Source: an uncultured Actinomycetes bacterium (lineage in GTDB: Bacteria > Actinomycetota > UBA4738 > HRBIN12). Taken from it: DNA of 64,000 nt. The notes under the pieces are model-generated. The model was not told where the DNA came from and made no database searches. It saw only the letters and a list, made by a program, of their open reading frames with translations. The position numbers and the translations under genes are program-made. How positions within the stretch are numbered: position 1 is the first letter of the stretch; each line of letters opens with the position of its first letter. Location of the stretch: positions 128,001 to 192,000 of the forward strand of contig CAVPIB010000007.1 in the NCBI GenBank assembly GCA_963704885.1. The letters run 5' to 3'. Shown here in pieces: positions 4,254 through 62,464 of the stretch.

Positions 4254-4718
4254 CTACGCGAGCACCCGGAAGATGAATTCGTACCCGGAGCCGTCCGGGA
4301 GGGCCTTGATCTGCATGCTGCCCCCCGCTCCCTTGTACTTGCCCCGACCACCTGTGATCACCATGACGCTGTCGTGGCTGTCGAAGAACGGTCCCTCGAT
4401 AGTGATGGCGCCGCCCTTGAGGAAGTTGATCCAGCGGCACTCCCAGGAACCGTCGGTCGGGTTGATGCGGATGCAGTCTCCCTGGTCGCGTCCCACCTTT
4501 TCGACGTTCGCCTCGTCGTAGAGCTCGTTGGCGAACGTGAGCAGATCGCCGGTGGAGTCGCCCGTAGCACCCAGATCGATCACGATGTCGGTGGTGGCGC
4601 GCTCGATCACGTGGATAACCGTGGCCTTACGGCGGTGGCCGGTTCCGGCCTGCGCGACATAGCCGGCCACGAGCACGGCGACGATGGCGACGGCCGCGAT
4701 CATGGAGTTCTTCCGCAT
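4254..4718 (-). CDS. secreted allene oxide cyclase / dirigent-like beta-barrel protein
   Basis: Signal peptide (MRKNS..VAQA); GDLLTFANELYD..VGRDQGDC, GAITIEGPF, ITGGRGKYKGAGG match the AOC/dirigent pattern; RBS AAGGAG. Confidence 0.75.
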   Translation of the reverse strand: MRKNSMIAAVAIVAVLVAGYVAQAGTGHRRKATVIHVIERATTDIVIDLGATGDSTGDLLTFANELYDEANVEKVGRDQGDCIRINPTDGSWECRWINFLKGGAITIEGPFFDSHDSVMVITGGRGKYKGAGGSMQIKALPDGSGYEFIFRVLA

Positions 4719-4843: not shown

Positions 4844-5677
4844 GTGTCGGAAGGGGGCAGGAAGCCGTTGGAGCAGCCGTTGCCGGCGGAACGGCATCGC
4901 AGGATCCTCGAGGTCGTGCGTGAGCGCCATGCCGTAAGGGTGTCCACGCTGTCCGAGCTCCTGGGCGTCTCGGAGGTGACCGTCCGCCGAGACCTCGAAG
5001 ATCTCGAGCATCGAGGACTGTTGGAGCGGACCCACGGAGGAGCTATCTCCACCCAGCGGCTCGGGGCAGAGCCGGCCTACCTCGAGGCCTCCCACAGGTG
5101 CGCTCCGGAGAAGATCTCGATCGGTCGAACCGCGGCGGAGTTCGTTCACGCCGGGGACACGGTCTTCCTGAACGGCGGAACGACCACGCTGCAGGTATTC
5201 CGGCATCTTGAAGGGGTCGATGTCCGCGTCGTCACGAATCATGTCGGGATCGCCTCCGAGGCGGCCGATCGCGATATCGATCTGATCGTCATCGGTGGGG
5301 AGTATCGAGCTCCGTCCAACTCCTGCGTGGGGAGCTTCGCCACCCAGATGTTGAGGGGCGTCTTCGCCTCTCGCTCGCTCATCGGCGTCGAAGGGCTCAG
5401 CATCCGCTCCGGGCTGACCACGCCCGCGGCACCCGAAGCCGAGGTCGCCCGCGTGATGATCGAACAGACGCAGGGCCCGGTGATCGTGGTCGCCGATTCA
5501 AGCAAGATCGGGACGATCGCAGACTTCTCGATCGCCCCGCTCGATGTCATAACCATGCTAGTGACCGATGCAGGTTTGGACGACGCGTACCGCGACGAGC
5601 TCGACGCCGTCGGTGTCGAAGTCGTGATCGCCGGCCGTGCGCCGATCCGAGCAGGAGCGGGCCGTGGAGAAGGCTGA
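4844..5677 (+). CDS. DeoR/GlpR family transcriptional regulator
   Basis: GVSEVTVRRDL..LERTHGGA HTH; FLNGGTT; VTN; ADSSKIG. Confidence 0.95.
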   Translation: MSEGGRKPLEQPLPAERHRRILEVVRERHAVRVSTLSELLGVSEVTVRRDLEDLEHRGLLERTHGGAISTQRLGAEPAYLEASHRCAPEKISIGRTAAEFVHAGDTVFLNGGTTTLQVFRHLEGVDVRVVTNHVGIASEAADRDIDLIVIGGEYRAPSNSCVGSFATQMLRGVFASRSLIGVEGLSIRSGLTTPAAPEAEVARVMIEQTQGPVIVVADSSKIGTIADFSIAPLDVITMLVTDAGLDDAYRDELDAVGVEVVIAGRAPIRAGAGRGEG

Positions 5678-6428
5678 GTTCGAAGCCGAGGCCGTCCGGC
5701 TCGTGGACGCCGCGAATGCGCAAGGGATCACGCTGCGGCTCCTCGGCGCGCTCGCGTTCGCGACACGGTGTCCCGATCACGCCTATCTGCAGGATCAACT
5801 CGGGCGGGTCTACACCGATATCGACTTCGGCGGATACGGGAAGCAGGTGCGCCAGATCCAGGAACTGCTCGCGAGTCTCGGCTACGTCGAGGACACCGGG
5901 GTCTACGTCGAGTCTCAGGGCACGCGCCTGATCCTGGAGCACCCCGAGACGAAGCTTCACCTGGACGTGTTCCTGGATCGGCTCGACTTCTGTCACACCG
6001 TCTCGTGGAACGGCAGGCTGGAGATCAACGACCGGACCATCCCGCTCGCCGAGATGCTGTTGCAGAAGATGCAGATCGTAGAGATCAACGAGAAGGACCT
6101 GATCGACACGATCATGCTCTTGCTCGAATACCCGCTCGGGGAGGACGACGACGGCCGGGTCAACATGGCGCTCGTGGCCGACATCTGCGCCAAGGATTGG
6201 GGATGGTGGCGCACGCTCACGATGAACCTGGACAAGGTGCGGCAGATGGCAGCGAGCTATCCCCAGCTCACCGACGAGCAGAAGGACCGCGTGGCCGATC
6301 AGGTGACCGCGGCGCTCGACCGGATCGAGGCCACGCCCAAGAGCTTGGGATGGAAGCTGAGGAGCCGCGTGGGCGACCGCAAGAAGTGGTACCAGGACGT
6401 CGGTGAGCTGGCGCCGGAGGTGGGCTGA
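5664..6428 (+). CDS. nucleotidyltransferase-fold (Pol-beta superfamily-like) protein of unknown function
   Basis: GTG start after AGGAG; LRLLGALAF...YTDIDF...LHLDVF three-aspartate arrangement; C-terminal EKDLID. Confidence 0.65.
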   Translation: MEKAEFEAEAVRLVDAANAQGITLRLLGALAFATRCPDHAYLQDQLGRVYTDIDFGGYGKQVRQIQELLASLGYVEDTGVYVESQGTRLILEHPETKLHLDVFLDRLDFCHTVSWNGRLEINDRTIPLAEMLLQKMQIVEINEKDLIDTIMLLLEYPLGEDDDGRVNMALVADICAKDWGWWRTLTMNLDKVRQMAASYPQLTDEQKDRVADQVTAALDRIEATPKSLGWKLRSRVGDRKKWYQDVGELAPEVG

Positions 6429-7429
6429 TGCCGGTCTTCAAGAGGCGCGGGACGTCTAAGGGCACTCCGACCCGCCTGTTCTACGCGTGCGACATCCACG
6501 GCTCCGAGCCCACGTACCGGAAGTTCCTGAACGCAGCGAAGTTCTACGAGGTCGACGCGCTGATCTTCGGCGGAGACCTGATGGGCAAGCTGCTGGTCCC
6601 GATCGTGCGCGACAGCGGCGGGACCTACCGTGCCAGGCTCCAGGGGCAGAACCATCACATCACGTCGGACGAGGAGATGGCGCAGCTCAAGAAGGTGCTC
6701 CAGACGCTCGGGTTCTATTGGCAGGAGATGGATCCCGAGGAGTACGAGAGTTACGCAGGGAACCAGGATCGCATCGATCAGCTGTTCGACGTCCTGGCCA
6801 AGGAGCGACTGGCGGAGTGGGTCGTGCTCGCCGAGGAGCGGCTGAAGGATTCGCACGTGCGCGTGTTGCTATGCGGCGGGAACGACGACACGGACGAGGT
6901 CCTGACGGCCTTGGATGAGACGGCACAGGATCGCGTGATGAACGCGGAGAACCGCGTGGTGCCCGTCGACGACGAACACGTCGTCGTCACGATCGGCTAC
7001 TCCACACCGACGCCGTGGGATACACCGCGCGAGCGGAGCGAGGACGAGATCGCCGAGGTGATCAAGACGATCATGGCCGAGGTGCCGGATCCGTCGCGGG
7101 CGGTCTTCAACTTCCACTGCCCACCGCTCGACTCGGGGCTGGATACCTGTTTGAAGTTGGACGCGTCCGTGTGGCCTCCGACGCCCGCGCTGCAGAACGG
7201 CCAGGCGATCTACTACGGAGCCGGGTCCCAGGCCGTGACCGACGCGCTCACCGAGTACCAACCGACCGTCGGCATGCACGGCCACATCCACGAATCCCGC
7301 GGGGTCACGAACTACGGGCGGACCCTTGCGCTCAATCCGGGGAGCGAGTACGGAGAGGGGGTGTTGAGGGGACTCATCGTCACCATCCGAGGAGGAGACG
7401 TCGTCGGGCATCAATTCACGTCCGGGTAG
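6428..7429 (+). CDS. calcineurin-like metallophosphoesterase
   Basis: CDIHGS, GGDL, GGNDD, FHCPP, HGHIHE, NPGS motifs; TGATG coupling to the previous gene. Confidence 0.9.
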   Translation: MPVFKRRGTSKGTPTRLFYACDIHGSEPTYRKFLNAAKFYEVDALIFGGDLMGKLLVPIVRDSGGTYRARLQGQNHHITSDEEMAQLKKVLQTLGFYWQEMDPEEYESYAGNQDRIDQLFDVLAKERLAEWVVLAEERLKDSHVRVLLCGGNDDTDEVLTALDETAQDRVMNAENRVVPVDDEHVVVTIGYSTPTPWDTPRERSEDEIAEVIKTIMAEVPDPSRAVFNFHCPPLDSGLDTCLKLDASVWPPTPALQNGQAIYYGAGSQAVTDALTEYQPTVGMHGHIHESRGVTNYGRTLALNPGSEYGEGVLRGLIVTIRGGDVVGHQFTSG

Positions 7430-7470
7430 GCCCGGCCCGGAGCAGCGCGCGAGACACGAAGGGAGGGGGA

Positions 7471-9105
7471 ATGGCAGAGGCAGTCGCTCCACAGGTCTTC
7501 ACCAGGCGCGCATCCGGACTCGTCCGGGTGATGTCGCCGTACTCCGCGTTCATCTACAACATCCTGACGATGGGGGTGATCTTCCCCTGGACCTACCTGT
7601 GGGCGCCCACCGCGTTCCAAGGGTCGAACCTCGTCCTCGGGATCGGGTTCGCCTTCCTGTTCGAGTTGCCGATCGCGCTGGCCTATGTGTGGCTCGCGAC
7701 CGCGCTTCCTCGGTCGGGGGGTGACTACGTGTTCCAGAGCCGCGTATTCGGCGGCGGCTTCGGGTTCACCGTGGTGTTCGCTTTCTTCGTCGTGTGGATC
7801 CTGCAATGGGTCGCGCTCTCGGGCTGGTTGCTCGCGACGCTCGGCCTGGCGCCGACGTTCATCGGCCTCGGGGTCACGACCGGCATCGATGCGTTCACCG
7901 ACTTCGGGACCTGGGCCGCGTCGACCAACGGCATCATCATCATCAGCGTCGTGAACGCGCTGGTTGCGATGGTCTTGCTGGTCACGGGGTTCAAGAACTA
8001 CGTCCGGTTCCAGTTCGTGATGTGGTACGCGATCCTGATCTCGTTCGGGATCGTCTTGCTGCTGTTCCTGTTCACGGATCCGGGGGCGGCCCAAGGGAAG
8101 CTGGACGGGTTCGCCGCGAGCGTCGACGGCGTGTCGGGATTCTTCGCCTCGGCGAAAGCGGCCGCCGCGGAAGCCGGGGTGAACTTCAGCCCACCGTTCT
8201 GGCTGTTCGGCACCTTGATGGTGGCGCCGATCGCGTGGACGAGCCTTCAGTGGGCCACGTACTCGGTGGAACAGGGTGGGGAGATCAAGAACGCCCACGT
8301 GTTCCGGAACCAGCTGTTCATCATCGTGGGCTCGCTGGCCACGGTGGCCGGGCTGCTCATCATCCTGGCGCTCGCCATGCGGAGTGGGTTCGGGCAGGAC
8401 GGGATCCTGGTTGCCTCATCCGGCTACTGGTACGGCGTCGGGGGTGCGACGATCGGCGGGAACTACCTCTTCCCGAACTTCATCGCCATGGGCCTGACCG
8501 GGAGCTGGGTGATCGTCTTATTGATCGGGTTCGGGTTCATCTTGAACTCGTTCCAGATCGTCTGTAACTGCTACATCGGGACGACGCGGATCATGGTGGC
8601 GCAGGGCTTGGACGGCCTGCTGCCAGACTGGTTCGCGCGCGTGCACCCGAAGTGGAAGACCCCGATGAACGCGCACATCGCGTACTTCCTCGCGGCACTG
8701 CCGGTGATCTATGGGTTCAACAAGATCGGCAGCTGGACGCGATGGACCCTGGGTGTGACGTTCGCGAACGGGGCGGTGATGGTGCTGTCCGCGTTGGCGG
8801 CGGCCCTCTTGCCGTATCGGGCGAAGCAGTTGTATGAGGCGTCGCCCGGCGCCCGGTACAAGATCGGGAACGTCCCGATGGTCACGGTGTTCGGGATCTT
8901 GGGGTTCCTGCTGGGCGGCTTCATGGTGGTGTCCTTCCTGTTCGTGAAGGACCTGGGACTCGCGTTCTCGAACGATGCGCTGCCGTACTGGATCGTGCTC
9001 GGTACGGCCGCGTTCGGCCTGATCGTGTATCTGGTCATGAAGTCGGTCCAGTCACGCAAGGGCATCAAGGTCGAGTACGCCTTCCAGGAGATCCCGCCCG
9101 AATAG
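7471..9105 (+). CDS. APC family amino acid/amine permease
   Basis: ATG 7471 after GGGAGG; F.R.ASGLVR start, PRSGGDYVF.SR, R...A.GLDGLLP motifs; about 12 hydrophobic segments. Confidence 0.9.
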   Translation: MAEAVAPQVFTRRASGLVRVMSPYSAFIYNILTMGVIFPWTYLWAPTAFQGSNLVLGIGFAFLFELPIALAYVWLATALPRSGGDYVFQSRVFGGGFGFTVVFAFFVVWILQWVALSGWLLATLGLAPTFIGLGVTTGIDAFTDFGTWAASTNGIIIISVVNALVAMVLLVTGFKNYVRFQFVMWYAILISFGIVLLLFLFTDPGAAQGKLDGFAASVDGVSGFFASAKAAAAEAGVNFSPPFWLFGTLMVAPIAWTSLQWATYSVEQGGEIKNAHVFRNQLFIIVGSLATVAGLLIILALAMRSGFGQDGILVASSGYWYGVGGATIGGNYLFPNFIAMGLTGSWVIVLLIGFGFILNSFQIVCNCYIGTTRIMVAQGLDGLLPDWFARVHPKWKTPMNAHIAYFLAALPVIYGFNKIGSWTRWTLGVTFANGAVMVLSALAAALLPYRAKQLYEASPGARYKIGNVPMVTVFGILGFLLGGFMVVSFLFVKDLGLAFSNDALPYWIVLGTAAFGLIVYLVMKSVQSRKGIKVEYAFQEIPPE

Positions 9106-9123
9106 GACGGGAGGCGCAACGCA

Positions 9124-9155
9124 CGATGGGGCGGGGCTTGGGCCCCGCCCCATCG
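9124..9155 (+). terminator. 14-bp perfect GC-rich hairpin between permease and oxidoreductase
   Basis: CGATGGGGCGGGGC-TTGG-GCCCCGCCCCATCG; no U-tract. Confidence 0.55.
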
Positions 9156-9173
9156 CTCATCCGAAAGGTAGAT

Positions 9174-11594
9174 GTGGATCGCGCTCGGGCCGTCGTGATC
9201 GGTGGCGGGGTCACCGGTTGCAGCATCCTTCTGCACCTGGCAGAGGCGGGATGGACGGATGTCCTGCTCCTGGACAAGGGTGAGCTGACGAGCGGCTCCA
9301 CGTGTCACGCGGCCGGGCTCGTCACGATGTTCAACCCGTCGCCCACGATGATGCGGTTCCGGCGCTACTCGATCGAGCGATACCGGGAGCTCGGCGTATT
9401 CGAGACGGTCGGCGGATTGAGGTTCGCTTCGAGCCGCGACCAGTTCATGGAGCTGCAACGCGGGGTGTCTCGGGCGAAGGGCATCGGACTCGATGTCGAG
9501 CTCTTGTCGGCGGATGAGGCGCGCGCGTTGATGCCGGCCGCGTCGCCCGAAGAGCTACACGGCGCCGTCTACGTCCCCGGCGACGGATACCTGGATCCAC
9601 ACGGCGCCACCCATGCCCTGGCGGCGGCGGCGCGCTCGCTCGGAGCCACGATCGAGACGGGTGTCCGCGTGACGGGCATCGAGCTGTCGGAACGACGCGA
9701 GGTGACGGCCGTCCTCACCGACCGCGGTCGGATCGAGACCGAGGTCGTCGTCAACGCGGCGGGGATCTGGGCGCCGCGTGTCGCGGCCATGGTCGGCGCG
9801 TTCGTTCCCTCTACACCGGTCGACCACCAGCACGTCGCGCTGAAGGCGGTCCCCGGATCCGAGTTGCCGAACGACATGCCGTGCTTCCGCGACCCGGACA
9901 ACCTGGTTTACGGCAAGGCCGAGTCGGGCGGGATCCTATTCGGTGGGTACGAGCCCGATCCCGTCGCGCGCTGGGTCGACGGTGTTCCATGGGAGCACGG
10001 AGGCCGCGCGCTTCCCGCCGACATGGGACGGTTCGAGCAACTGATGCAGGGTGCGGCGCGAAGGTTCCCGTTCGTCGCCGATGCTGAGATCGTGAAGCTC
10101 GTCTGCCATCCCGACGCGATGACGCCCGATGCCAACCCTCTGCTGGGACCGATGCCCGGTGTGCGTGGCTTCTTCATGGCGGCGGGGCTCTCACTGAACG
10201 GGTTCGGGGGCGCCGGCGGCATCGGCAAGACCGTGGCCGAATGGGTGACCGCCGACGAAACGGAGCTCGACGTCTTGTCCTACCGGGCGTGGCGCTTCGG
10301 GCATGTCTATCGCGACCCTTCTTGGGCCGCCGAGGTTGCCCGCGAGACCTACCGCTACTACTACGAGTTGCGCTATCCGTTCGATCAGGACGAGTTCGGA
10401 CGACCCAGACGCGAGAGCCCCTTGATGTCCCGGCTCCAGGACGCCGGTGCGGTCTTCGGCGCGAAGAACGGATGGGAGCGGACCGAATACGTGGCGCCGG
10501 GGGAGCCGTGGCGGCGTGCGGGAGCCGACCAGCGAGCCTGGGGATGGACCGAGCCGCCGTTCTACATGCGCGTGGCGCAGGAGCACCGGGCCGTCCGCGA
10601 GCGCGTCGGGTTGTTCGACATGACGTCGTTCGGGAAGATCGACGTCTCTGGCCGGGACGCGCTTGCGGTGCTCGAGCGCGTGTCGGACAACCGGATCGAT
10701 CGTCCGATCGGAAGCGTCGTCTACACGCAGTTCCTTGAGCGACGCGGCGGGATCGTCGCCGATGTGACGGTGACCCGGCTCGGGAAGGATCGGTTCCGAG
10801 TGATCACAGGCTCTGGGACGATCGACGCCGACCTCGGGTGGATCCGGGCGAACTTGCGGGATGGTGAAGACGTTGAGCTCCTCGACGCGACGGAGGGTCT
10901 TGCGGTGATCGGTCTTTGGGGACCTGCGGCTCGCGCCGTGCTGGAGGCCGTCAGTGACGACGATGTCTCCGGCGGCGGGTTCCCATTCATGCAAGCTCGC
11001 AAGATCGTGGTCGGGGGCGCGCGAGCTTTCGCGCAACGCGTGACCTACGTGGGGGAGCTGGGGTGGGAGCTGTACGTGGAGCCTGAGTGGGCGACCCAGG
11101 TATGGGACCGACTGAGGCAGGCAGGAGCGCCGCACGGTATCGCCATCGCCGGGTATCGCGCGCTCGACTCGCTCCGGATCGAGAAGGGCTACCGGTACTT
11201 CGGGACGGACCTAACGATGCTGGACGATCCCTTCCAGGCGGGACTTGCGGCGTGCGTGCGTCTGGAGAAGGAGTCATTCGTGGGTCGCGACGCCCTCGTG
11301 GCGAAGCTCGAAGCCGGAGCGCCGACGCGTCGCCTCCGGACGCTCCTCGTCGGAGCGGAGGCCTACGTCCCGATCTACGGCGGAGAGGCGGTTCTGGTCG
11401 ATAGGGGCGTTGTCGGGCGGCTCCGCAGCTGTGCCTACGGGTTCACGGTCGGGCGGAACATCGCATACGCCTACCTCCCGACGGAGCTCGGGCCGGGTGA
11501 CCGGGTCGATGTGGAAGCCTTCGGAGAGCCGATCCCCGCGGAGGTGGCCGACGATGTGTCCGTCGATCCCGCGGGTGAGCGGATCCGTGCCTAG
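9174..11594 (+). CDS. GcvT-family FAD/THF amine dehydrogenase (dimethylglycine/sarcosine dehydrogenase-like), copy 1
   Basis: IGGGVTG, TSGSTCHAAG, TPDANPLLG, GWER, FDMTSFGK, YVGELGWEL, LRIEKGY; start GTG 9174. Confidence 0.92.
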   Translation: MDRARAVVIGGGVTGCSILLHLAEAGWTDVLLLDKGELTSGSTCHAAGLVTMFNPSPTMMRFRRYSIERYRELGVFETVGGLRFASSRDQFMELQRGVSRAKGIGLDVELLSADEARALMPAASPEELHGAVYVPGDGYLDPHGATHALAAAARSLGATIETGVRVTGIELSERREVTAVLTDRGRIETEVVVNAAGIWAPRVAAMVGAFVPSTPVDHQHVALKAVPGSELPNDMPCFRDPDNLVYGKAESGGILFGGYEPDPVARWVDGVPWEHGGRALPADMGRFEQLMQGAARRFPFVADAEIVKLVCHPDAMTPDANPLLGPMPGVRGFFMAAGLSLNGFGGAGGIGKTVAEWVTADETELDVLSYRAWRFGHVYRDPSWAAEVARETYRYYYELRYPFDQDEFGRPRRESPLMSRLQDAGAVFGAKNGWERTEYVAPGEPWRRAGADQRAWGWTEPPFYMRVAQEHRAVRERVGLFDMTSFGKIDVSGRDALAVLERVSDNRIDRPIGSVVYTQFLERRGGIVADVTVTRLGKDRFRVITGSGTIDADLGWIRANLRDGEDVELLDATEGLAVIGLWGPAARAVLEAVSDDDVSGGGFPFMQARKIVVGGARAFAQRVTYVGELGWELYVEPEWATQVWDRLRQAGAPHGIAIAGYRALDSLRIEKGYRYFGTDLTMLDDPFQAGLAACVRLEKESFVGRDALVAKLEAGAPTRRLRTLLVGAEAYVPIYGGEAVLVDRGVVGRLRSCAYGFTVGRNIAYAYLPTELGPGDRVDVEAFGEPIPAEVADDVSVDPAGERIRA

Positions 11595-11604
11595 GAGCTG
11601 ATGG

Positions 11605-12507
11605 ATGGGTCCGAGCATCGAGCAGGTGGTCGAGCGGGTCTCGCTCTGGAGCCCAGACGAGGTCTCTGTCTCGGAGCTTTCGGGCGGTCTCACCAACCAG
11701 AACTTCCTCGTCACGCGCGGGGACCAACGGTTCGTCGTCCGGATCCCGGGCGCATCCACCGAGCTTCTGGCCGTCGACCGCCGCAACGAGCGCCACAATG
11801 CCGAGGCGGCTGCGACCACCGGCGTGTCGCCACGGGTGCTCGAGTACCTGCAGGAGTGGTCGGTGATGGTGCTCGAGTTCATCGACGGGGAGACCATGTC
11901 GCCCGGGCGCCTGCGGGAGCCCTCGATGCCGGCCCGCATCGCTGCGTCACTCCATCGTCTGCACGCCGGCCCGCCGTTCTTGCATGACTTCGACATGTTC
12001 CGGATCACCGACTACTACCTCGGGATCATCGCGGGGCGCGACGTGCGGATCCCCGGTGGCTTCCGCGATCGGATGGACACCGTCGCCGACATCGAACGCG
12101 TCCTCGCCGTCAACGCCCGACCTCCCGTGCCGTGTCACAACGATCTTCTCGCCGAGAACTACATCGACGACGGGCGGCAGCTCTGGATCATCGACTTCGA
12201 ATACAGCGGGAACGACGATCCGTGCTTCGAGCTGGGCGACACCGCACAGGAGTGCGGCTACGACCGTGACCAGAAGGCGGCCCTCTGCGCCGCTTACTTC
12301 GGCCGTGAGGATCCGGTACAACTCGCGCGGATGGAGCTATACGCGATGATGGCCGACGTCGGCTGGACGCTCTGGGCGGCTATCCAGGCGCAGATCTCCA
12401 CGATCGACTTCGACTTCTGGGGTTGGGCCGTCGAACGGTGGGACAGGGCCACCGCGGTGATGGATGGCGGTGGGTTCGATCAGCTCCGCAACGCCGCGAC
12501 GTCGTGA
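11605..12507 (+). CDS. choline/ethanolamine kinase-like phosphotransferase, copy 1
   Basis: LSGGLTNQNF, VVRIPG, CHNDLLAEN (Brenner motif), IIDFEYSG. Confidence 0.88.
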   Translation: MGPSIEQVVERVSLWSPDEVSVSELSGGLTNQNFLVTRGDQRFVVRIPGASTELLAVDRRNERHNAEAAATTGVSPRVLEYLQEWSVMVLEFIDGETMSPGRLREPSMPARIAASLHRLHAGPPFLHDFDMFRITDYYLGIIAGRDVRIPGGFRDRMDTVADIERVLAVNARPPVPCHNDLLAENYIDDGRQLWIIDFEYSGNDDPCFELGDTAQECGYDRDQKAALCAAYFGREDPVQLARMELYAMMADVGWTLWAAIQAQISTIDFDFWGWAVERWDRATAVMDGGGFDQLRNAATS

Positions 12508-12557
12508 CGACGCCGATGTTGACGGGACGCGTGCCTCGGGGGACCCTGGCTTCGTTC

Positions 12558-12857
12558 ATGAAGGTCGTTGCCACCCCTGAGGTCGTCGAGTTCATCCGCC
12601 AGCGCGGCGGGGAGATCTTCGTGTGGTCCGTGACCATGGAGTACGGCTACGCGCGAGGGAGCGTCTTCGTGCTTGAGGCATCGGTGGAGTCACCCGGCGC
12701 CGAACGGGGATTCGTGCGGTTCGAGGGCGAGGGCATCACGGTCTTCTACGAGCCTGGGGAGCGTGGGACGCCCGACTCGCTACACCTGACGCTTCGCGGG
12801 CGCGCTCGCAAGCGGGTCGCCGCCTACTGGAACGGCCACAGCTACGGGACCGAGTGA
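12558..12857 (+). CDS. small hypothetical protein
   Basis: MKVVATPEVVEFIRQRGG...AYWNGHSYGTE; protein-like composition; fills the gap between convergent operons. Confidence 0.6.
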   Translation: MKVVATPEVVEFIRQRGGEIFVWSVTMEYGYARGSVFVLEASVESPGAERGFVRFEGEGITVFYEPGERGTPDSLHLTLRGRARKRVAAYWNGHSYGTE

Positions 12858-12869
12858 GTCGAGCGTCCG

Positions 12870-14153
12870 TCAGGGCTCGAGCGCCAAGGCGTCGACGAGC
12901 CGGTCGGTCCCGCCGGTTCGCAGGAGCGCCTTCGCCCGGTCGGCCGGCCCCTCCCGGCGCTCGAGCCGGTCGCGGATCGGGTCGAGCATCGGCTCCTCGC
13001 CGAGCCCTCGGCTGCCCAGGCCCGCGGCGGCCAGATCGGCCAGCGTCGACAAGAAGCCCGGCGACGGTTCCTCGGCCTTGATGCCGTGGCCGACCGCCCG
13101 TCGCCGATAGGCGAGGAGCGCACGCCACCCTTCGACGCCCGGGAACGTCTCGTCGAGGTACGAAGCGACCTCGGCGTTCGCTTCGACCAAGCCGACCGAC
13201 AGGGCCGCCGCCGCGAACGAGGCCTCGGGCTGTTGGCAGGCCGGCCGGATCTCGAGCGTGCCGAGGCGGGCACGCGGGCGTGCGCTCGGCCATAGGTAAT
13301 GCTCGTGGTAGAGCCATTCCTCGAGGTCGGGGCCCCGCCGGGCGAGTCGCTTGGCGAAAGGCATCGCCGGCTCCACGAATCCCCCTCGACCGTCGGGCAG
13401 GACGAGTGCCCGGAAGCCCACCGTCCAGCGCACGTAGTCCTCGGCGTCGACGAACCGCCTGGGCACCGCCCCGTTGCGGAAGGGCTCTCCGGACACGCGC
13501 GCGGACAGGGCCTCACGTCCCGACGCCGCGCCGGGCCGGCCGCCGTAGATCGACGAGTTCGCACACAGGGCGATCAGCGCGCCGGAGCAACCGTTCATGG
13601 CGTTCATAGCGCGCACCAGCTCGTCGCGTCCGACGTCCACGTGCACCTGGTCGCTCGCTGTCACCGTCCACCGGAGCCATCCGAGGCCTATCGCGCGCAC
13701 GAGCGCCTCGTAGCGGACCTTCGGCGTCAGTAGGTCGTTGGCCGGTGGCGTCCGGGGCTGGATGCCGTAGCCGAGCAGGCGGTATCCCGCTTCCCGGGCA
13801 ACGCCGCCGACCAAGCGCAGCGCGGGGACGAGGTCCTCCGCGAGCTCTGTCAGCGATCGGCGCGGTCCGACCCCGATCTCAACCGTGCCTTTGCCGACCT
13901 CAGCCAGGCAGAACCACCGGCGCGCCTCGACGCCGATCAACAGACCCGATGGGTCGTGCATGGCGGGCGCGTCCGTCGCATACAGCAGTGGGTTCCACAG
14001 GTCCGACGAGTCGCCGGCGCGGCCGTTCGCGTCGACGAGCGGAAGTTCGGCCTCGCGTCCCACCGATCGTGCGCCACTCCGTCGCGCGGGGAACCGTGAG
14101 ACGAAGCCTTCCGCGAGAGCCGCGATCCCCGCGTCAAGTCGCGATGTCGGCAT
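12870..14153 (-). CDS. glutamate-cysteine ligase family 2 (GCS2/EgtA-like) carboxylate-amine ligase
   Basis: VGREAEL, TASDQVHVD, ALCANSS, WPSARPR, LEIRPAC. Confidence 0.8.
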   Translation of the reverse strand: MPTSRLDAGIAALAEGFVSRFPARRSGARSVGREAELPLVDANGRAGDSSDLWNPLLYATDAPAMHDPSGLLIGVEARRWFCLAEVGKGTVEIGVGPRRSLTELAEDLVPALRLVGGVAREAGYRLLGYGIQPRTPPANDLLTPKVRYEALVRAIGLGWLRWTVTASDQVHVDVGRDELVRAMNAMNGCSGALIALCANSSIYGGRPGAASGREALSARVSGEPFRNGAVPRRFVDAEDYVRWTVGFRALVLPDGRGGFVEPAMPFAKRLARRGPDLEEWLYHEHYLWPSARPRARLGTLEIRPACQQPEASFAAAALSVGLVEANAEVASYLDETFPGVEGWRALLAYRRRAVGHGIKAEEPSPGFLSTLADLAAAGLGSRGLGEEPMLDPIRDRLERREGPADRAKALLRTGGTDRLVDALALEP

Positions 14154-14158
14154 CGTCG

Positions 14159-14824
14159 TCAGAACGAGGCGTGGTCGCCGGCGGAGGTGACCAGCTGCAC
14201 CGTGGCCTCCTCCAGCAGCGCGGCATCCGGCCCCAATCGGAACGCGTTCAGCTCGCAGTTCAGGATGTCGAACTCGAGGGCGTGGTACGGGTCCTGCCCG
14301 CGGACGGCAGCGTGGAGCTGCTGCAGGAAGTTCTGATGCGAGAAGACCGCCACGTGCCTCCCGCCGTGTCGCTCGAGCAGGGCGTCCAGGGACTTATGCG
14401 CACGATCGTGGAGCGCGTCGAAGCTCTCGCCACCCGGTGGGTTCAGCGAGTACCGCATGTGCTCGATCTGGAGGTACTTCACGTGTGGGAAACGCTCGGG
14501 CACCTCGCTCGGATCGATCCCTTCCATCTGCCCGAACGACCGCTCCGTGCACCCTTCGTCGATCTCCAGGCGCTCGTACGGCCATCCGGTCACGAGCTCG
14601 GCCGTCTCGACGGCCCGCACGAGCGGGGAGGTGACGACCACGTCGAGCGGCGTACCGGCGAACCGGGAGCCTGCCTCCCGCGCCTGCGCGCGACCCTCGT
14701 CGATCAAAGGGACGTCGATCCTGCCGCCCACCCGCTTATCGCGGTTCAGCTCGGTTAGACCGTGACGGACCGTCATCACGACCGTCTGGCCTGCCTCGGC
14801 CTCGAAAGGGAGCATGCCGCTCAC
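14159..14824 (-). CDS. histidine phosphatase (phosphoglycerate mutase family)
   Basis: VRHGLT, SPLVRAVETA, ERSFGQMEG, PGGES, FSH. Confidence 0.9.
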   Translation of the reverse strand: MSGMLPFEAEAGQTVVMTVRHGLTELNRDKRVGGRIDVPLIDEGRAQAREAGSRFAGTPLDVVVTSPLVRAVETAELVTGWPYERLEIDEGCTERSFGQMEGIDPSEVPERFPHVKYLQIEHMRYSLNPPGGESFDALHDRAHKSLDALLERHGGRHVAVFSHQNFLQQLHAAVRGQDPYHALEFDILNCELNAFRLGPDAALLEEATVQLVTSAGDHASF

Positions 14825-17259
14825 GCGCGGATCCGCTCGCCCCTCGGGTCCCAGAGCGGATCGTTCGCGACGACCGATGGGACGAGCTCACCGAACACTT
14901 CGATCTCGCACGCGGTTCCGGCGACCGCCATCTCGATCGGGAGGTACGCGTAGGCGATCGACGCGCCGACCGTGTAGCCGAGGCCGCCGCTCGTGACCCT
15001 CGATACGACGCGACCGCCGTGGGACACGGGTTCGTTGCCCAGGGTCATGGCTCTCCCGTCGGCCAATGTTAGGCACGAGAGCTTGCGCGTGAGGCCACCG
15101 GCCATGGCGCGCTCGAGCGCTTCGTTCCCGATGAATCCCGGCACGTCCATGCGGACCGCGAAACCCAATCCCGCCTCGAACGGGTGCTCCTCTGGCGTGA
15201 TGTCCGCGCTCCATGCGCGATAGCCCTTCTCAAGGCGGAGCGTGTCGATCGCCCGGTAGCCAGCAGGGATCACCCCGTGCGGTTCGCCTGCGGCCATCAG
15301 CGTGTCCCAGAGCGCGCCGGCGAACTCGACCTTGGGATATAGCTCCCATCCCAGCTCGCCGACGTATGTGACGCGCAGCGCCAGACAGGGCACGTTACCC
15401 ACCACGATCTCGCGCGCCGTCATATAGGGGAAGCCGTCGTTCGACACGTCGTCGGTCGTCGCGGACGAGAGGATGTCGCGTGCCCTCGGACCCCACAGGC
15501 CGAAGCAACCCATCGTGCCTGTCACGTCGCGGACCTCCACGCCGTTGAACCCACCTTCGCCGATCTGTTTGCGGATCCACCCCAGATCGTGGTTCCCGAA
15601 CGCCGTGCCGGTGACGAGGAGGTAGCGGTCCTCGTCGAGGCGCGTGGCCGTCAGGTCGCACTCGACACCGCCGCGCGAGTTCAGTAGCTGCGTGTAGACC
15701 ACCGAGCCGGGTTCGCGGTCGACGTCGTTCGCGCAGAGCCGCTGCAGGAACGGGGTCGCCCCGTCACCGCTGATCTCGATCTTCGCGAAGCTCGACTCGT
15801 CGAAGAGGCCCGCGCGCTCCCGTGTGGCGATGTGCTCCGCCGGGATCGCGCTCGACCAGTGCTCGCCGGCCCATCCGCGCGGCCGCGATCCTTCGAGCGA
15901 TGGATCCTCGTTCGAGCTGAACCAGTTGGCGCGTTCCCAGCCCGATTTCTCGCCGAACTCCGCTCCGAGCTCCTGCAGTCGACCGTACGTCGGAGCCGTC
16001 TTGAGCGGTCTTCCCGCCTGCCGCTCCTCGCCCGGGTAGTGGATGTCGTAGTAAGTGGCGTACACCTCGTAGGCGCGCTCACGCGCGTAGTTCCGCGATC
16101 GGTACTGCGGGCCGAACCTCCGGATGTCCATCTTCCATAGGTCGAACTCCGGCTCGCCGTGCACGATCCAATCGGCCATGACCTTGCCGATCCCACCGGC
16201 GCCCGCGATCCCGTGGGCGCAGAAGCCGGCTGCCACGAAGAACCCGCGCACGTCGGACTCGCCCAAGATGAACTCGCCGTCGGGCGTGAACGCCTCGGGT
16301 CCGTTGATCATGGTCACGACCTCGGCCGTTTGCAGGACGGGGACGAGGCCGAACGCGTTCTCGGCCAGCTGCTCGAAGCGTTCCCAGTCTTCGGGCAGCA
16401 GCTGGTGGTTGAAGTCCGCGGGCGGGCCTTCCTGCACCGCCCACGTGGCCGGGTTCCGTTCGTACCCACCCATCACCAGGCCGCCGCCCGCCTCGCCGCG
16501 GAAGTACACGAGCCTGTCGGGGTCTCGCATGGTCGGCAGGTCGACGCTTCCACCCTCTACCGGTTTCGTCAGCAGGTACTGATGCGCGAACGGCACCACG
16601 GGCACCTCGACGCCGGCCAGATGCCCGATCTGGTTGGCGTACATCCCTCCGGCGTTCACCACGATGTCGGCGGTGATCGAGCCGTGTTCCCGAGTGATGA
16701 CGCCGCGAACACGACCGTCCCGGACGTCGATGCCGGTCACCCGCGTGCTGGGCCGGACATCGGCGCCTCGTCGCCGGGCGCCCTCCGCTAACGCGAGCGT
16801 GAGGTTGCTGGGGTCGAGATGGCCGTCGGTCGGGATGAAGGCGGCTCCCTGCACCCCCGCCGGATCGAACAGTGGGAACCGCTGGTGCGCGTCCTCGGTG
16901 GAGATGACCTCGAGGGGCAGTCCGAACGTGTGTGCCCAGCCCTCCTGGCGGCGGAGCTCCTGCATGCGTTCGTCGGTCGAGGCGAGCCGGAGCGACCCCA
17001 CCTCGTGCCATCCCGGATCCACGCCTGTCTCATGCGCCAATCGCCGGTAGAGCTCGGCCGAGTACATCATCATCCGCGTCAGTGAGACGCTCGATCGTAG
17101 CTGTCCGACCAGCCCCGCCGAATGGAAGGTGGATCCCGAGGTGAGCTCGTTCCGGTCCACGAGCAGTATGTCTTGCCAGCCGAGCTCGGCGAGGTGATAG
17201 GCGATGCTCGCGCCGGCGACGCCGCCGCCGACCACGATCGCCCGGAACGACTCGGTCAT
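14821..17259 (-). CDS. GcvT-family FAD/THF amine dehydrogenase, copy 2
   Basis: MTESFRAIVVGGGVAG, TSGSTFHSAG, GPEAFTPDG, GWERANWF, YVGELGWEL, LRLEKGY; ATGA coupling with the kinase. Confidence 0.93.
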   Translation of the reverse strand: MTESFRAIVVGGGVAGASIAYHLAELGWQDILLVDRNELTSGSTFHSAGLVGQLRSSVSLTRMMMYSAELYRRLAHETGVDPGWHEVGSLRLASTDERMQELRRQEGWAHTFGLPLEVISTEDAHQRFPLFDPAGVQGAAFIPTDGHLDPSNLTLALAEGARRRGADVRPSTRVTGIDVRDGRVRGVITREHGSITADIVVNAGGMYANQIGHLAGVEVPVVPFAHQYLLTKPVEGGSVDLPTMRDPDRLVYFRGEAGGGLVMGGYERNPATWAVQEGPPADFNHQLLPEDWERFEQLAENAFGLVPVLQTAEVVTMINGPEAFTPDGEFILGESDVRGFFVAAGFCAHGIAGAGGIGKVMADWIVHGEPEFDLWKMDIRRFGPQYRSRNYARERAYEVYATYYDIHYPGEERQAGRPLKTAPTYGRLQELGAEFGEKSGWERANWFSSNEDPSLEGSRPRGWAGEHWSSAIPAEHIATRERAGLFDESSFAKIEISGDGATPFLQRLCANDVDREPGSVVYTQLLNSRGGVECDLTATRLDEDRYLLVTGTAFGNHDLGWIRKQIGEGGFNGVEVRDVTGTMGCFGLWGPRARDILSSATTDDVSNDGFPYMTAREIVVGNVPCLALRVTYVGELGWELYPKVEFAGALWDTLMAAGEPHGVIPAGYRAIDTLRLEKGYRAWSADITPEEHPFEAGLGFAVRMDVPGFIGNEALERAMAGGLTRKLSCLTLADGRAMTLGNEPVSHGGRVVSRVTSGGLGYTVGASIAYAYLPIEMAVAGTACEIEVFGELVPSVVANDPLWDPRGERIRA

Positions 17260-18194
17260 TCGACCGCCTCCTCGGCGGCCGCGCGCAACCACTCGCCGAA
17301 CCGCTCGTCCGATGCGCTCGCCAGACATCGCGCGAAGTGCCGCTCGGCGTAGTCCACGTAGTCGAACTCCAGGGTGGAGATGGCCTGCTGAACCACGCCC
17401 CACATCGCCTCGCGGAAGTCCGACATGATGCGCATCAACTGCAGCCGCGCCCGATGCGCGTCGTTGACTTGGACGAAGTACAGCTTCAACAATAGCTCCT
17501 GGGCGTCCTCACTCAATCCGTTGTTGATCGACAGGTTCCCCAGATCGAAGAAGGGATCGCCCATCCCGCCGTACTCGTAGTCCACGATCCACACGTGATC
17601 GCCATCGAGCAGGAAGTTCGCGTTCAGTAGGTCGTTGTGGCACGGGCGGTCCGCGAGCGGTTGCTTCGTGAGCGCCGCCTCGATGGCATCCGCCTTGGCG
17701 TGAGTCTCATCGAAGGCCGGGGGCGCCGAGATGCCGCGCTCGGCCGCGATCACGCGATAGTCCTCCACGATCCTGAAGACCGGGAACGTGGATGGGAGCG
17801 GGGGTCCCGCGTGTATCGCTCGAACTGACCGAACCACGGCCGCGAGCACGTCCGCTCGTTGCAGGTCCGCCTCTGGTATGTGCGTCCCCCTTACGAACCG
17901 GGTGATCAGAGCTCCGAAGCCGGGGAGGTAGGCGAAGACATCGGGGGCCACGCCCGCCCGGGCCGCCGCGCTCGCGGCCTCGTTCTCGGCGGCACGATCG
18001 ATCCCGAGCAACTCCGTGTCCTTGCCCGATAGTCGGACCACGAACGACTCGCCACCGATGTCGAGCTTGAAGTTGCGGTTCGTGATGCCGATCGTGATCG
18101 GCGTGACTTCCGGTTCCAGACCCTGCCACTCGGGGATGGCCTCCACGACCGAGGCGAGCGCCGGATCGAGCTCCGAATCCTGGCTCGCGTTCAC
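17256..18194 (-). CDS. choline/ethanolamine kinase-like phosphotransferase, copy 2
   Basis: GITNRNF, CHNDLLNANF, IVDYEYGG, DLGNL. Confidence 0.88.
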   Translation of the reverse strand: MNASQDSELDPALASVVEAIPEWQGLEPEVTPITIGITNRNFKLDIGGESFVVRLSGKDTELLGIDRAAENEAASAAARAGVAPDVFAYLPGFGALITRFVRGTHIPEADLQRADVLAAVVRSVRAIHAGPPLPSTFPVFRIVEDYRVIAAERGISAPPAFDETHAKADAIEAALTKQPLADRPCHNDLLNANFLLDGDHVWIVDYEYGGMGDPFFDLGNLSINNGLSEDAQELLLKLYFVQVNDAHRARLQLMRIMSDFREAMWGVVQQAISTLEFDYVDYAERHFARCLASASDERFGEWLRAAAEEAVE

Positions 18195-18200
18195 GCCTGG

Positions 18201-18242
18201 AAGCTACGCCCGATGTTCGTTCCTGGTCAAGACTGAACGAAC
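18201..18242 (-). promoter_or_regulatory. promoter TTGACC-N18-TAGCTT (probably leaderless) overlapped by inverted repeat GTTCGTTC-N12-GAACGAAC
   Basis: -10 box ends 7 nt before GTG 18194; no SD; the inverted repeat straddles the -35 box. Confidence 0.6.
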
Positions 18243-18287: not shown

Positions 18288-19895
18288 GTGAAGGTGCAGA
18301 AGAAGGAGGTCCCGAGCCCCGGAGCGGCCCAGGGCCGCCCTCATCGGGTCGCGGGCGCCGCTCTGGGAGTGCTGTCGGGCGCCGCCGCCATCGGGGCTTC
18401 GCAGATCGCGGCGGGCATCGTCGGGGGCACCTCTTCGCCGGTGATCGCGGTCGGGAGCACGGCCATCGACGCCACGCCCGAATGGCTGAAGAGCTTCGCG
18501 ATCCGAACGTTCGGGTCGAAGGACAAGGTCGCTCTGCTGATAGGGATCGGCGTGGTGCTGGTGATCGCGGCCGTGCTCTTGGGGATCGCTTCGATCCGAC
18601 GCCCCCGCGTAGGAGCGATCGGCCTGATCGCCTTCGGGGCCATCGGAGTTCTCGCATCGGTGACACGTCCCTCCGCCGGCCTCGCCGACGCTATCCCCGC
18701 GATCGTGGGAACGGCGGCGGGCCTCTTGGCGTTCCGCTACCTCCTTGGCGCAACCGGTCTTCCTGAGCCAACACCCTCACCGGCTTCCGACGCTGAACCC
18801 GGGGATCGTGTACGCGAACCGGCACCCGACCTCGATCGCCGGCGGTTCCTGCGGGCGGGGATCGTGGTCGCCGGTGCAGCCGCCGTGTCCGGGGCGGTCG
18901 GGCAGTACCTGGTGCGGCGCATGAGCGCGACCGCGTCCCGAGCCGCCGTCCGGATGCCGCATCCGTTCAGCAGCGCGGCGCCGGTACCTCCGGGCGCGGA
19001 TCTGAACATCCGGGGCCTCAGCCCTTTCATCACGCCCAACGACCGCTTCTATCGCGTCGATACCGCGCTCATCGTTCCCGCGGTCGACACCGATGGCTGG
19101 CAGTTGCGGATCCACGGGATGGTCGAGCACGAGATGACCGTGAACTACGAGCAGCTCACCGCGCGGCCCACGATCGAGCGCGACGTCACGCTCGCCTGTG
19201 TCTCCAACGAGGTCGGTGGGGAGTACATCGGCAACGCCCGCTGGGTCGGCGTGCCCCTCGGGCCGCTGCTTGAAGAGGCCGGCGTCCTGCCGGGAGCCGA
19301 TCAGTTGGTCTCGCGTTCGTCCGACGGCTGGACCGCCGGAACGCCGACCGCTGTGGTGATGGACGGGCGGGACGCCATGCTCGCCATCTCCATGAACGGC
19401 GAGCCGCTGCCTCTCGAGCACGGCTTCCCCGTCCGGATGGTCGTCCCCGGCCTGTACGGATACGTGTCGGCCACCAAGTGGCTGGTCGAGCTTGAGCTGA
19501 CCACGTTCGATGCGTTCGATCCCTATTGGATCGGACGAGGCTGGGCGAAGCAGGCGCCGATCAAGACCCAGTCACGGATCGATACCCCGCGATCCTCGGC
19601 GAGGATCCAGCCGGGGGAGGTGGTCGTCGCTGGAGTGGCATGGGCGCAGCACCGCGGGATCGAGGGCGTGGAGGTGAGCCTGGACGACGGTCCGTGGATG
19701 CCCGCGGAGCTAGCCGCGGAGGACACCGTCGATACGTGGCGTCAGTGGATGTATCGGTGGAACGCCACCGTCGGCAACCACCGGTTGTCCGTTCGGGCCA
19801 CCGACGGGACGGGCGTCACTCAACCATCGCGCGAAGTGCCGCCGTTCCCGGACGGAGCGACCGGCAACCACACGATCGTGGTCAACGTCGGCTGA
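18288..19895 (+). CDS. membrane-bound sulfite-oxidase-family molybdopterin oxidoreductase
   Basis: N-terminal TM segments, internal DRRRFLR twin-Arg, TPNDRFYRVD, LACVSN, HGFPVRMVVPGLYGYVSATKW, VRATDG. Confidence 0.9.
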   Translation: MKVQKKEVPSPGAAQGRPHRVAGAALGVLSGAAAIGASQIAAGIVGGTSSPVIAVGSTAIDATPEWLKSFAIRTFGSKDKVALLIGIGVVLVIAAVLLGIASIRRPRVGAIGLIAFGAIGVLASVTRPSAGLADAIPAIVGTAAGLLAFRYLLGATGLPEPTPSPASDAEPGDRVREPAPDLDRRRFLRAGIVVAGAAAVSGAVGQYLVRRMSATASRAAVRMPHPFSSAAPVPPGADLNIRGLSPFITPNDRFYRVDTALIVPAVDTDGWQLRIHGMVEHEMTVNYEQLTARPTIERDVTLACVSNEVGGEYIGNARWVGVPLGPLLEEAGVLPGADQLVSRSSDGWTAGTPTAVVMDGRDAMLAISMNGEPLPLEHGFPVRMVVPGLYGYVSATKWLVELELTTFDAFDPYWIGRGWAKQAPIKTQSRIDTPRSSARIQPGEVVVAGVAWAQHRGIEGVEVSLDDGPWMPAELAAEDTVDTWRQWMYRWNATVGNHRLSVRATDGTGVTQPSREVPPFPDGATGNHTIVVNVG

Positions 19896-40532: not shown

Positions 40533-40599
40533 GCGGGTACAGCGAGGGCGCCTATGAAGCGCCCGGGGTATCGTGGCGCCCGCATCCGGAGGGCTAGAC

Positions 40600-55474: not shown

Positions 55475-55578
55475 CCAACGACTCTGTGAGTGAGTGTCTG
55501 CCACTGATAGGACCCTTCGACCCTGCACGACAGGGCCCTCGGTCCCTGCTCATGCCAGCCTGCCGCGGTCAGCATCCG

Positions 55579-62383: not shown

Positions 62384-62391
62384 GAGATGGG

Positions 62392-62464
62392 TGCCCTCGG
62401 CAGGAATCGGACCTGCGACACCCGGTTTAGGAAACCGGTGCTCTATCCACTGAGCTACGAGGGC
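62392..62464 (-). tRNA. tRNA-Arg(CCT)
   Basis: GCCCTCG/CGAGGGC acceptor stem, TAGCTCAGTGGATAGAGC D arm, CCGGT-TTCCTAA-ACCGG anticodon arm, GCAGG-TCCGATT-CCTGC T arm; 73 nt. Confidence 0.93.

Follow-up and report, generated by a model that had tools for sequence, protein, structure and literature searches.

Choline is phosphorylated in Eubacterium limosum by the kinase MthK, after which MthB, an MttB-family enzyme that acts on phosphocholine only, removes a methyl group to yield dimethylaminoethanol phosphate; the authors propose that the phosphate takes the place of the carboxylate borne by other MttB substrates, and dimethylaminoethanol is the end product of this anaerobic choline demethylation (PMC12155760). 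Here we describe a gene cluster at positions 4844-18194 of a 64,000-nucleotide stretch from an uncultured Actinomycetes bacterium (GCA_963704885.1, contig CAVPIB010000007.1, positions 128,001 to 192,000; hereafter the window). It combines two kinases of the choline/ethanolamine family (K1 and K2), two flavoenzymes (G1 and G2) related to dimethylglycine dehydrogenase (DMGDH) and dimethylglycine oxidase (DMGO), and a triad consisting of a nucleotidyltransferase (NT), a metallophosphoesterase (MPE) and an APC permease. The system is real, conserved and uncharacterised: its catabolic part is probably phosphorylation-primed demethylation in a new form, and the triad is its stranger element.

No description of a pathway built from a kinase and a DMGDH-like enzyme, or of an NT-MPE-APC triad, was found in the full-text literature searched, with subscription journals mostly outside it, and no paper found there assigned genes to the aerobic breakdown of N-methylated ethanolamines. 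The available portions of 10.64898/2026.06.26.734754 and PMC9742990 hold nothing on the present system. An earlier interpretation made from the DNA alone (the sequence-only reading) had proposed an undescribed pathway; this holds for the kinase and DMGDH-like set, but the logic of a kinase followed by a demethylase has a precedent (PMC12155760).

Organisation of the cluster and its occurrence in other genomes

The open reading frame (ORF) list and the Pfam and NCBIfam scans resolved two convergent operons, deoR-NT-MPE-permease-G1-K1 on the plus strand and K2-G2-phosphatase-GCS2 on the minus strand. All ten genes listed in the sequence-only reading were found at the positions and in the orientations it had given; the 117-aa ORF at 12504-12857 (+), which overlaps the stop of K1 and is the last gene of the left operon, had been overlooked. 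The features are as follows:

4844-5677 (+): deoR, DeoR/GlpR-family repressor (Pfam DeoRC and HTH_DeoR; under every named NCBIfam cut-off)
5664-6428 (+): NT, Pol-beta-fold nucleotidyltransferase related to NTP_transf_5 (fold and conserved residues)
6428-7429 (+): MPE, calcineurin-like metallophosphoesterase with GDxxK and GNDD motif variants (fold and metal ligands)
7471-9105 (+): APC permease with a conserved C-terminal tail (PF13520)
9126-11594 (+): G1, DMGDH/DMGO-like flavoenzyme with folate domain (DAO, FAO_M and GCV_T)
11605-12507 (+): K1, choline/ethanolamine kinase, W-type (PF01633)
12504-12857 (+): small ORF of 117 aa (40-52% identity in L006, L008 and L010; weak NF041239 match under cut-off)
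12870-14153 (-): GCS2-family carboxylate-amine ligase (PF04107)
14159-14824 (-): histidine phosphatase with RHG motif (PF00300)
14821-17259 (-): G2, second DMGDH/DMGO-like flavoenzyme (E-value 2e-172 to DMGDH)
17256-18194 (-): K2, kinase, E-type (PF01636/PF01633)
18215-18242 (-): perfect 8-bp inverted repeat around a TTGACC box upstream of K2, candidate repressor site

Translational coupling, as had been proposed, was confirmed by the overlaps between neighbouring genes: 14 nt for deoR/NT, TGATG for NT/MPE, ATGA for K2/G2 and GTGA for G2/phosphatase. G1 and K1 are separated by 10 nt and the phosphatase and GCS2 genes by 5 nt only. The real starts of NT, the permease and G2 lie at 5664, 7471 and 17259; that of G1 may lie further downstream than 9126.

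The cluster is flanked by ilvD-thrC and ilvB, a placement shared by its closest relatives, which are uncultured Actinomycetota. Since the gene order is identical in loci L006, L008 and L010, minus the GCS2 and histidine phosphatase genes, the cluster is not a chance assembly, and the two operons belong together as had been supposed. Its GC and GC3 values are those of the flanks, and there is therefore no sign of recent transfer.

Genomes in GTDB were scanned starting from an alignment of 121 MPE sequences. At least 584 MPE relatives were found among at least 603 candidates, which makes the triad widespread, and the best 80 loci were kept, gene presence being scored by tblastn. Loci with a permease at least 50% identical to that of the window (25) were called close; 48 have a distant permease and 7 have none. 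The close loci belong to Actinomycetota, Chloroflexota and Alphaproteobacteria, with one record labelled Patescibacteria. Among all 80 loci the permease was found in 73, NT in 64, the 117-aa ORF in 3 (Actinomycetota copies only), and neither the histidine phosphatase nor the GCS2 ligase in any.

The 25 close loci contain a kinase in 18 cases, a DMGDH-like gene in 17, NT in 19 and DeoR in 9, many of the misses being due to short contigs; among close loci of at least 15 kb the kinase is present in 10 of 12. Two kinases together with two flavoenzymes occur at seven loci (L006, L008, L010, L013, L019, L022 and L035). Folate genes lie near some loci: FTHFS at L013, MTHFR at L015 and L027. The 48 loci with a distant permease have no kinase, and NT is present at 41 of them.

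For a reciprocal test, a set of 72,556 plasmids was searched. Permease and MPE each matched two records, identical for both proteins and with the two genes in the same cluster, and NT matched one of these records; relatives of the kinases were found on 132-134 records. In 21 plasmid kinase loci, picked non-randomly from top and spread rows, a DMGDH-like gene was present in 13 and an amidohydrolase with two kinases in 7, one locus being cut by the record start. DeoR was detected by tblastn in 15 of the 21, NT and MPE in none. At two of the loci (L090 and L100) the operon reads kinase-flavoenzyme-flavoenzyme-kinase and includes both kinase types, the same two-plus-two content as in the window.

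These results identify the cluster as two separable modules, A (NT-MPE-permease) and B (DeoR-kinase-flavoenzyme), with the GCS2 ligase and the histidine phosphatase as two local additions. The co-occurrence across genomes that the sequence-only reading had named as a check thus exists in several phyla for kinase and flavoenzyme, but the cluster does not travel as one unit, and the two added genes do not belong to the core in which they had been included. The slot of the histidine phosphatase after the flavoenzyme is occupied by a HisN-like phosphatase in L018 and L022, and a HisN-like gene also follows the flavoenzyme in L002; a HAD hydrolase lies near the cluster in L019. The plasmid homologue of GCS2 has an unrelated gene context.

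In Alphaproteobacteria the transporters of module B vary: EutH in Nitratireductor, and ABC systems for betaine/choline on plasmids of Ruegeria, Shinella and Rhizobium. Cultured carriers of the module include Rhizobium rosettiformans MAE2-X, Nitratireductor sp. OM-1, Ruegeria sp. THAF33 and Shinella sp. HZN7. Together with eutBC, such transporters suggest that the substrate has an ethanolamine skeleton.

The amidohydrolase variant (L001 at 12028-16707, L089, L092, L098, L101, L103 and L104) consists of DeoR, a Zn-dependent amidohydrolase and two kinases of the same family. It is common on rhizobial plasmids, is found beside eutBC on pAoF64/95 (L001), is accompanied by a HisN-like phosphatase in 5 of 7 plasmid loci and has an amidase in some. 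It probably represents phosphorylation-primed hydrolysis of N-acyl- or N-carbamoyl-ethanolamine.

The kinases and the flavoenzymes

K1 and K2 are 35% identical. K1 matches the M. loti kinase 3DXQ (E-value 3e-48) and LicA (3e-24); the best NCBIfam profile for both K1 and K2 is GntI (210 and 267 bits, under the 357 cut-off). The choline site of LicA is formed by Tyr197, Trp251, Trp254, Tyr268, Val178 and the rim residue Glu213, with Asp176 catalytic (PMC4364537). In K1 the aromatic cage is intact: D180, Y200, E216, W254 and W257 correspond to LicA D176, Y197, E213, W251 and W254. In K2, Glu262 stands at the position of Trp251, preceded by Arg261, and Asn224 at that of the rim Glu213.

The same difference recurs among related kinases. 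An alignment of 44 kinases contained 20 K1-like sequences (W-type), 19 K2-like ones (E-type) and 5 amidohydrolase-linked ones, which were counted apart. Trp251 and Glu213 are kept in all 20 W-type kinases; Glu at 251 and Asn or His at 213 are found in all 19 E-type kinases, with Arg before the Glu in 18. The equivalents of the Brenner Asp176, of Tyr197 and of Trp254 are present in 39/39. Orthologues of K1 (13 rows, 92/94) and of K2 (11 rows, 98/94) formed separate groups, and the EutH-linked kinase is E-type. In the E-type pocket the acid would thus sit inside the cage instead of at its rim, an arrangement that would suit an ammonium group with N-H donors.

Both G1 and G2, which are 45% identical to each other, carry the DAO, FAO_M and GcvT folate domains in a single chain of about 800 aa and align over their full length with DMGDH and DMGO (for G1, E-values of 1e-130 and 7.6e-133, respectively). 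Both have the flavin-linking His as well as the Asp of the folate site, which is mutated in 3GSI. The G1 clade (13 members) has residues of its own and 100% local support. Outside it, the flavin-linking His was found in 22/22 kinase-linked enzymes. After the flavin His, a T-x-F stretch is common to G1 and rat DMGDH, and at this place G2 has a Gln-Leu-Arg stretch, which we take to occur in mammalian sarcosine dehydrogenase as well. Three full-length BetA-linked enzymes clustered apart; they are DMGO-like, and their active-site loops differ from those of G1 and G2.

The nucleotidyltransferase-phosphoesterase-permease triad and the regulator

The NT protein of the window has no Pfam or NCBIfam match, although 23 of 56 homologues match PF14907. 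The AlphaFold model (pLDDT 92.5) aligned with ANT(2'')-Ia (Z 13.6, rmsd 3.4, 154 residues), LnuA (Z 13.2), MenT1 (Z 11.9) and FKRP/LicD (Z 7.6). Pol-beta nucleotidyltransferases are recognised by an hG[GS] motif and three acidic residues (PMC2794190). Among the 56 homologues, G28, D52 and D54 are invariant and D101 is kept in 55; the second position of the motif is G or S in 36, and A in the window protein. By predicted fold, motif and acidic residues the membership of NT in this superfamily is confirmed, as the sequence-only reading had called it despite the missing family match. On a possible kinship with type IV toxin-antitoxin or defence NTases (MenT, AbiEii), the observations are the fold match to MenT1, the lack of a PADLOC match for NT and the lack of a recurrent antitoxin-like neighbour in the gene maps of related loci.

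The MPE model (pLDDT 96.7) is closest to two structural-genomics proteins, aq_1956 (Z 24.7, rmsd 3.3, 233 aligned) and TT1561 (Z 23.6), followed by MPPED2 (Z 20.3), and its profile finds LpxH and Rv0805. The metal-ligand signature of the superfamily (PMC3407115), namely the DxH, GD, GN, H and GHxH set, is complete, with D22, H24, D50 and H230 in 121/121 sequences. The Asp of GDxxD is replaced by Lys (K54, 120/121) and the His of GNH by Asp (D153, 119/121). Metallophosphoesterases lacking this His, such as YfcE, are still active diesterases, and the residue does not fix specificity (PMC3407115). Searches of PDB sequences with MPE alone and with the NT profile yielded nothing meaningful.

The nearest solved relatives of the permease are CAT1 and GkApcT-type carriers. 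Among 55 full-length homologues, with identities as low as 20%, 52 have a C-terminal tail of the [FY]x[EQ][ILV]PP[ED] type. The tail Tyr was rejected as a modification site, the position being F in 32, Y in 21 and T in 2 of the 55. An N-terminal Ser/Thr is found in 55/55, in rows that had been selected on that motif. At 31 loci the pairwise identities of NT, MPE and permease were correlated (Spearman 0.46-0.63), a result that common descent could produce by itself.

In a FastTree phylogeny, which gave long-branch warnings and in which pathway labels were put on 33 of 55 rows by the analyst, the permease clades followed the neighbouring pathways, with one branch each for kinase/flavoenzyme, BetA, PfkB-SIS and polyamine-type genes; the kinase-linked and BetA-linked clades joined in a group with 98% support. 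Further neighbours of the triad are putrescine transaminase-like genes, TMAO demethylase, type III glutamate-ammonia ligase and MttB. Because the substrates of these pathways have no common acceptor group, a role of NT and MPE in the service of the permease is more likely than one on the substrate. They are probably an accessory pair of the permease, and the steps of a linear pathway assigned to them in the sequence-only reading are probably not theirs, the pair keeping to the permease family where the neighbouring amine pathways are unrelated.

The triad, which occurs in bacteria and archaea (cultured carriers are Halobellus limi and Sphaerisporangium album), may be a transporter-control device, a tentative model in which NT would nucleotidylate the permease or make a nucleotide signal, and MPE, docking on the tail, would reverse the effect. 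Its clades would gate different amines, and here it would feed a demethylation pathway with dimethylethanolamine from microbes and lipids. Reversible nucleotidylation of the permease itself is the leading conjecture on the role of the triad, though of modest probability. If true, such a pair dedicated to one transporter would introduce a new principle of regulation. CBS-domain genes adjoin NT in 4 of the 25 close loci, a hint of adenine-nucleotide control of the triad. A four-CBS-domain gene was seen in L016 (3426-4235), L019, L027, L035 and L045; in the first four (Chloroflexota) it is co-oriented with NT and directly follows it.

A search for fusions of triad members gave three long MPE matches and one long NT match, none convincing, and this absence is weak evidence. 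P0271 is a partial NT joined to MPE by a linker that looks out of frame; P0272 is an MPE-permease fusion with a single member; P0273 includes domains of a transposase; P0274, from a 2-kb contig, is chimeric. All four were left out of the evidence.

Several variants of the triad were noted. One clade (L047, L049, L055-L057, L061-L063, L069, L070 and L074) has a GntR/UTRA regulator, a PfkB-SIS fusion and a SLOG cluster-4 protein, and many of its loci add amidohydrolase, racemase and allantoicase-like genes. It resembles a fructosamine-type catabolic system of Streptosporangiaceae and their relatives. In L023, L032, L037 and L039 a single permease lies between two MPE copies, beside choline dehydrogenase and DMGO-like genes. 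On a Thermomicrobium roseum plasmid (L094, 10402-14804) permease and MPE are followed by a nitrilase-like hydrolase with no NT family nearby; NT can therefore be missing.

Of the repressor gene, L010 has kept a remnant of 44 codons (9062-9187) and L006 and L008 nothing, the rest of the cluster being retained. Upstream of K2 these three loci have TTGAC-like and TAGCxT boxes; the repeat at 18215-18242 is not conserved and might, weakly, be a candidate repressor site. Its 8-mer occurs at 10 sites in the window against 1.9 expected (e.g. 18215, 18235, 29017 and 62361), an excess that may mean little for a motif picked post hoc. No conserved DeoR operator was found among 33 upstream regions, and a scan for consensus promoters and terminators stayed at chance level.

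Divergent from deoR lies a gene for a secreted-looking allene oxide cyclase/dirigent-like protein (4254-4718, -), also present in L007 and L008. Divergent from K2 is a membrane-anchored molybdoenzyme of the sulfite oxidase family (18288-19895, +), not found at this place in L006, L008 and L010. Elsewhere in the window, universal stress protein domains are fused to a Rieske domain (40573-41610, +), and Rfam and ARAGORN detected a tRNA-Arg(CCT) at 62390-62464 (-) and nothing else.

Proposed pathway and comparison with known systems

Common lipids of bacteria, plants and algae have N-methylated ethanolamines as head groups, and flavin-dependent amine oxidation requires a non-quaternary amine. The sequence-only reading had put forward that an amino alcohol is taken up, phosphorylated and then N-dealkylated in sequence, and this is the best account of the co-occurrence and pocket residues. 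That the substrate is some N-methylated hydroxy-amine is likely. N,N-dimethylethanolamine together with N-methylethanolamine is the favoured choice, judged from gene neighbours and pocket residues, and its chances are somewhat better than even.

In the proposed route the methylated ethanolamines would be imported by the APC permease. K1 and K2, which have the family and the catalytic residues of such kinases, would O-phosphorylate the amines, K1 acting on the more methylated and K2 on the less methylated one, and in the substrates of G1 and G2 the phosphate would replace the carboxylate of dimethylglycine and sarcosine. The flavoenzymes, with the family, flavin and folate sites described above, would oxidise the N-methyl groups singly, presumably G1 on the dimethyl and then G2 on the monomethyl compound, and pass the one-carbon (C1) units to tetrahydrofolate. 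Because of the requirement for a non-quaternary amine, the pathway would begin at dimethylethanolamine. Phosphoethanolamine would remain, to be used directly or dephosphorylated by the phosphatase recruited in each lineage, here the histidine phosphatase; a terminal dephosphorylation done by different enzymes per lineage is plausible. In this genome the GCS2 ligase might gamma-glutamylate the released ethanolamine, and DeoR would probably sense a phosphorylated intermediate, a phospho-amino-alcohol. An ending by ethanolamine-phosphate phospholyase was considered and has no support: only 2 of the 25 close loci have a class III aminotransferase nearby, and the copy scanned, that of L022, is below all cut-offs shown.

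The same logic could serve another substrate, such as an N-methyl hydroxy-amino acid, N-methyl-serinol, an amino-propanol or a diethanolamine-type compound, with the Arg of K2 binding an extra anion or hydroxyl. The near-constant Arg of the E-type kinases (18/19), the GntI profile, whose enzyme uses a different substrate, and the use of the kinase family in the amidohydrolase pathway agree with this. The EutH, choline/betaine ABC and eutBC neighbours and the intact choline cage of K1 argue against it, as does the lack of any conserved aldolase, dehydratase or phospholyase among 203 annotated neighbours of 1140 called, and we consider it possible, at roughly one chance in a handful. Metabolic roles for NT and MPE, with NT nucleotidylating the amino alcohol or its phosphate and MPE cleaving the NDP- or NMP-adduct in CDP-alcohol salvage or a two-step phosphorylation, would suit the closest NT folds, which are small-molecule O-adenylyltransferases, the LpxH and Rv0805 matches of MPE, and the CDP-alcohol diphosphatases of its superfamily (PMC3407115). 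This is improbable: the pair accompanies the permease in 41 of 48 distant, kinase-less loci, beside putrescine transaminase-like, BetA, glutamate-ammonia ligase, MttB or PfkB-SIS genes with no common acceptor group, and module B does without it in 21/21 plasmid loci.

G1 and G2 might alternatively be ordinary dimethylglycine and sarcosine dehydrogenases, the kinases feeding phosphatidylcholine or phosphatidylethanolamine salvage and the genes clustering through shared regulation only. Full-length homology to DMGDH and DMGO and the T-x-F stretch of G1 fit such enzymes. On the other side stand the absence of BetA and aldehyde dehydrogenase from all 25 close loci, the separate DMGO-like clade and different loops of the BetA-linked enzymes, the coupling or adjacency of kinase and flavoenzyme in three phyla, and the finding of a LicC-like cytidylyltransferase near one close locus only (L030), so that we rate this explanation as very unlikely. 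Least probable of all is the catabolism of an Amadori compound (fructosamine) or amino sugar, a substrate class that had also been suggested from the sequence. DeoR regulators often sense sugar phosphates, and a sister triad clade carries PfkB-SIS with a GntR/UTRA regulator, but PfkB-SIS genes are found at 0/25 close and 11/55 other loci, the choline-type kinase cage is small, and with a folate domain the leaving group should be a C1 unit.

Several observations weigh against the route through methylated ethanolamines. The 80 loci are related, and counts over them are not counts of independent events, so that no weight is given to a Fisher p-value from them; two close loci of at least 15 kb, L015 and L028, have no kinase, and L028 adjoins a TMAO demethylase. 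EutH and eutBC were each seen in 1 of 21 plasmid loci and in none of the 80 GTDB loci. The flavin-linking His is present in 7 and missing in 6 of the 13 members of the G1 clade, and both alphaproteobacterial flavoenzymes are unlike G1. The pairing is not fixed, W-type kinases adjoining G2-type enzymes in L003, L018 and L022, and the strict assignment of K1 to G1 and K2 to G2 is therefore weakened. Ethanolamine-specific eukaryotic kinases retain both Trp residues, and the W/E split need therefore not follow methylation; the Arg of the E-type kinases could bind a carboxylate.

If the methylated-ethanolamine route is correct, a function can be named for many genes annotated as choline kinase plus GcvT family, including those of cultured Rhizobiaceae and roseobacters, and phosphate-for-carboxylate mimicry would have been recruited by three families: MttB, DMGDH-like enzymes and M20-type amidohydrolases.

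The absence of the PfkB kinase and SIS deglycase from the close loci sets the system apart from fructosamine (Frl-type) catabolism. GlnD and GlnE carry out reversible protein nucleotidylation, with a Pol-beta NTase and a metal-dependent HD hydrolase. The triad likewise pairs a Pol-beta NTase with a metal-dependent hydrolase; unlike GlnD/GlnE, it consists of separate genes, has a calcineurin-like enzyme instead of an HD hydrolase and is tied to an APC permease.

With LicA and 3DXQ the kinases share the Brenner Asp and the aromatic cage, complete in K1, and, as in lic operons with their licD, an NTase-fold gene lies nearby (PMC2794190). In contrast to lic, the cluster has no LicB or LicC, its neighbours are catabolic, the K2 pocket is remodelled and NT is closer to ANT(2'') than to FKRP/LicD (Z 13.6 vs 7.6). 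Domain order, flavin-linking His and folate-site Asp link G1 and G2 to DMGDH (rat, 4P9S) and DMGO (Arthrobacter, 1PJ5); they differ in being coupled to kinases, in forming two paralogous clades, in their active-site loops and in the lack of the His in 6 of 13 G1-clade members.

The choline-betaine route (BetA/BetB, Gbc, DMGDH and Sox; 10.1101/2023.12.12.567942) also demethylates amines by stepwise oxidation with folate capture, and a sister clade of the permease triad adjoins BetA. In that route the alcohol is oxidised to a carboxylate, whereas here it would be phosphorylated. The sequence-only reading was right to set the cluster apart from betAB: choline dehydrogenase and betaine aldehyde dehydrogenase are absent from the window and from 25/25 close loci.

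The window also has a lone MttB-family methyltransferase gene (55441-57024, +) at a distance of 37 kb, whose product might conceivably provide the cluster with demethylated amines. Within 4844-18194 there is no MttB, corrinoid or MthA gene, and MttB is near 1 of the 25 close loci. As in the Mth system, a LicA-like kinase gene is adjacent to that of a proposed demethylase from a normally carboxylate-requiring family, and the methyl carbon would go to tetrahydrofolate. Unlike it, in which a cobalamin-dependent MttB enzyme acts on a quaternary amine and ends at dimethylaminoethanol, the flavin enzymes of the window would start at that compound. The kinase/flavoenzyme system is thus a member of neither Mth nor betAB; it would follow the same phosphorylation-primed logic as Mth with a different demethylase family.

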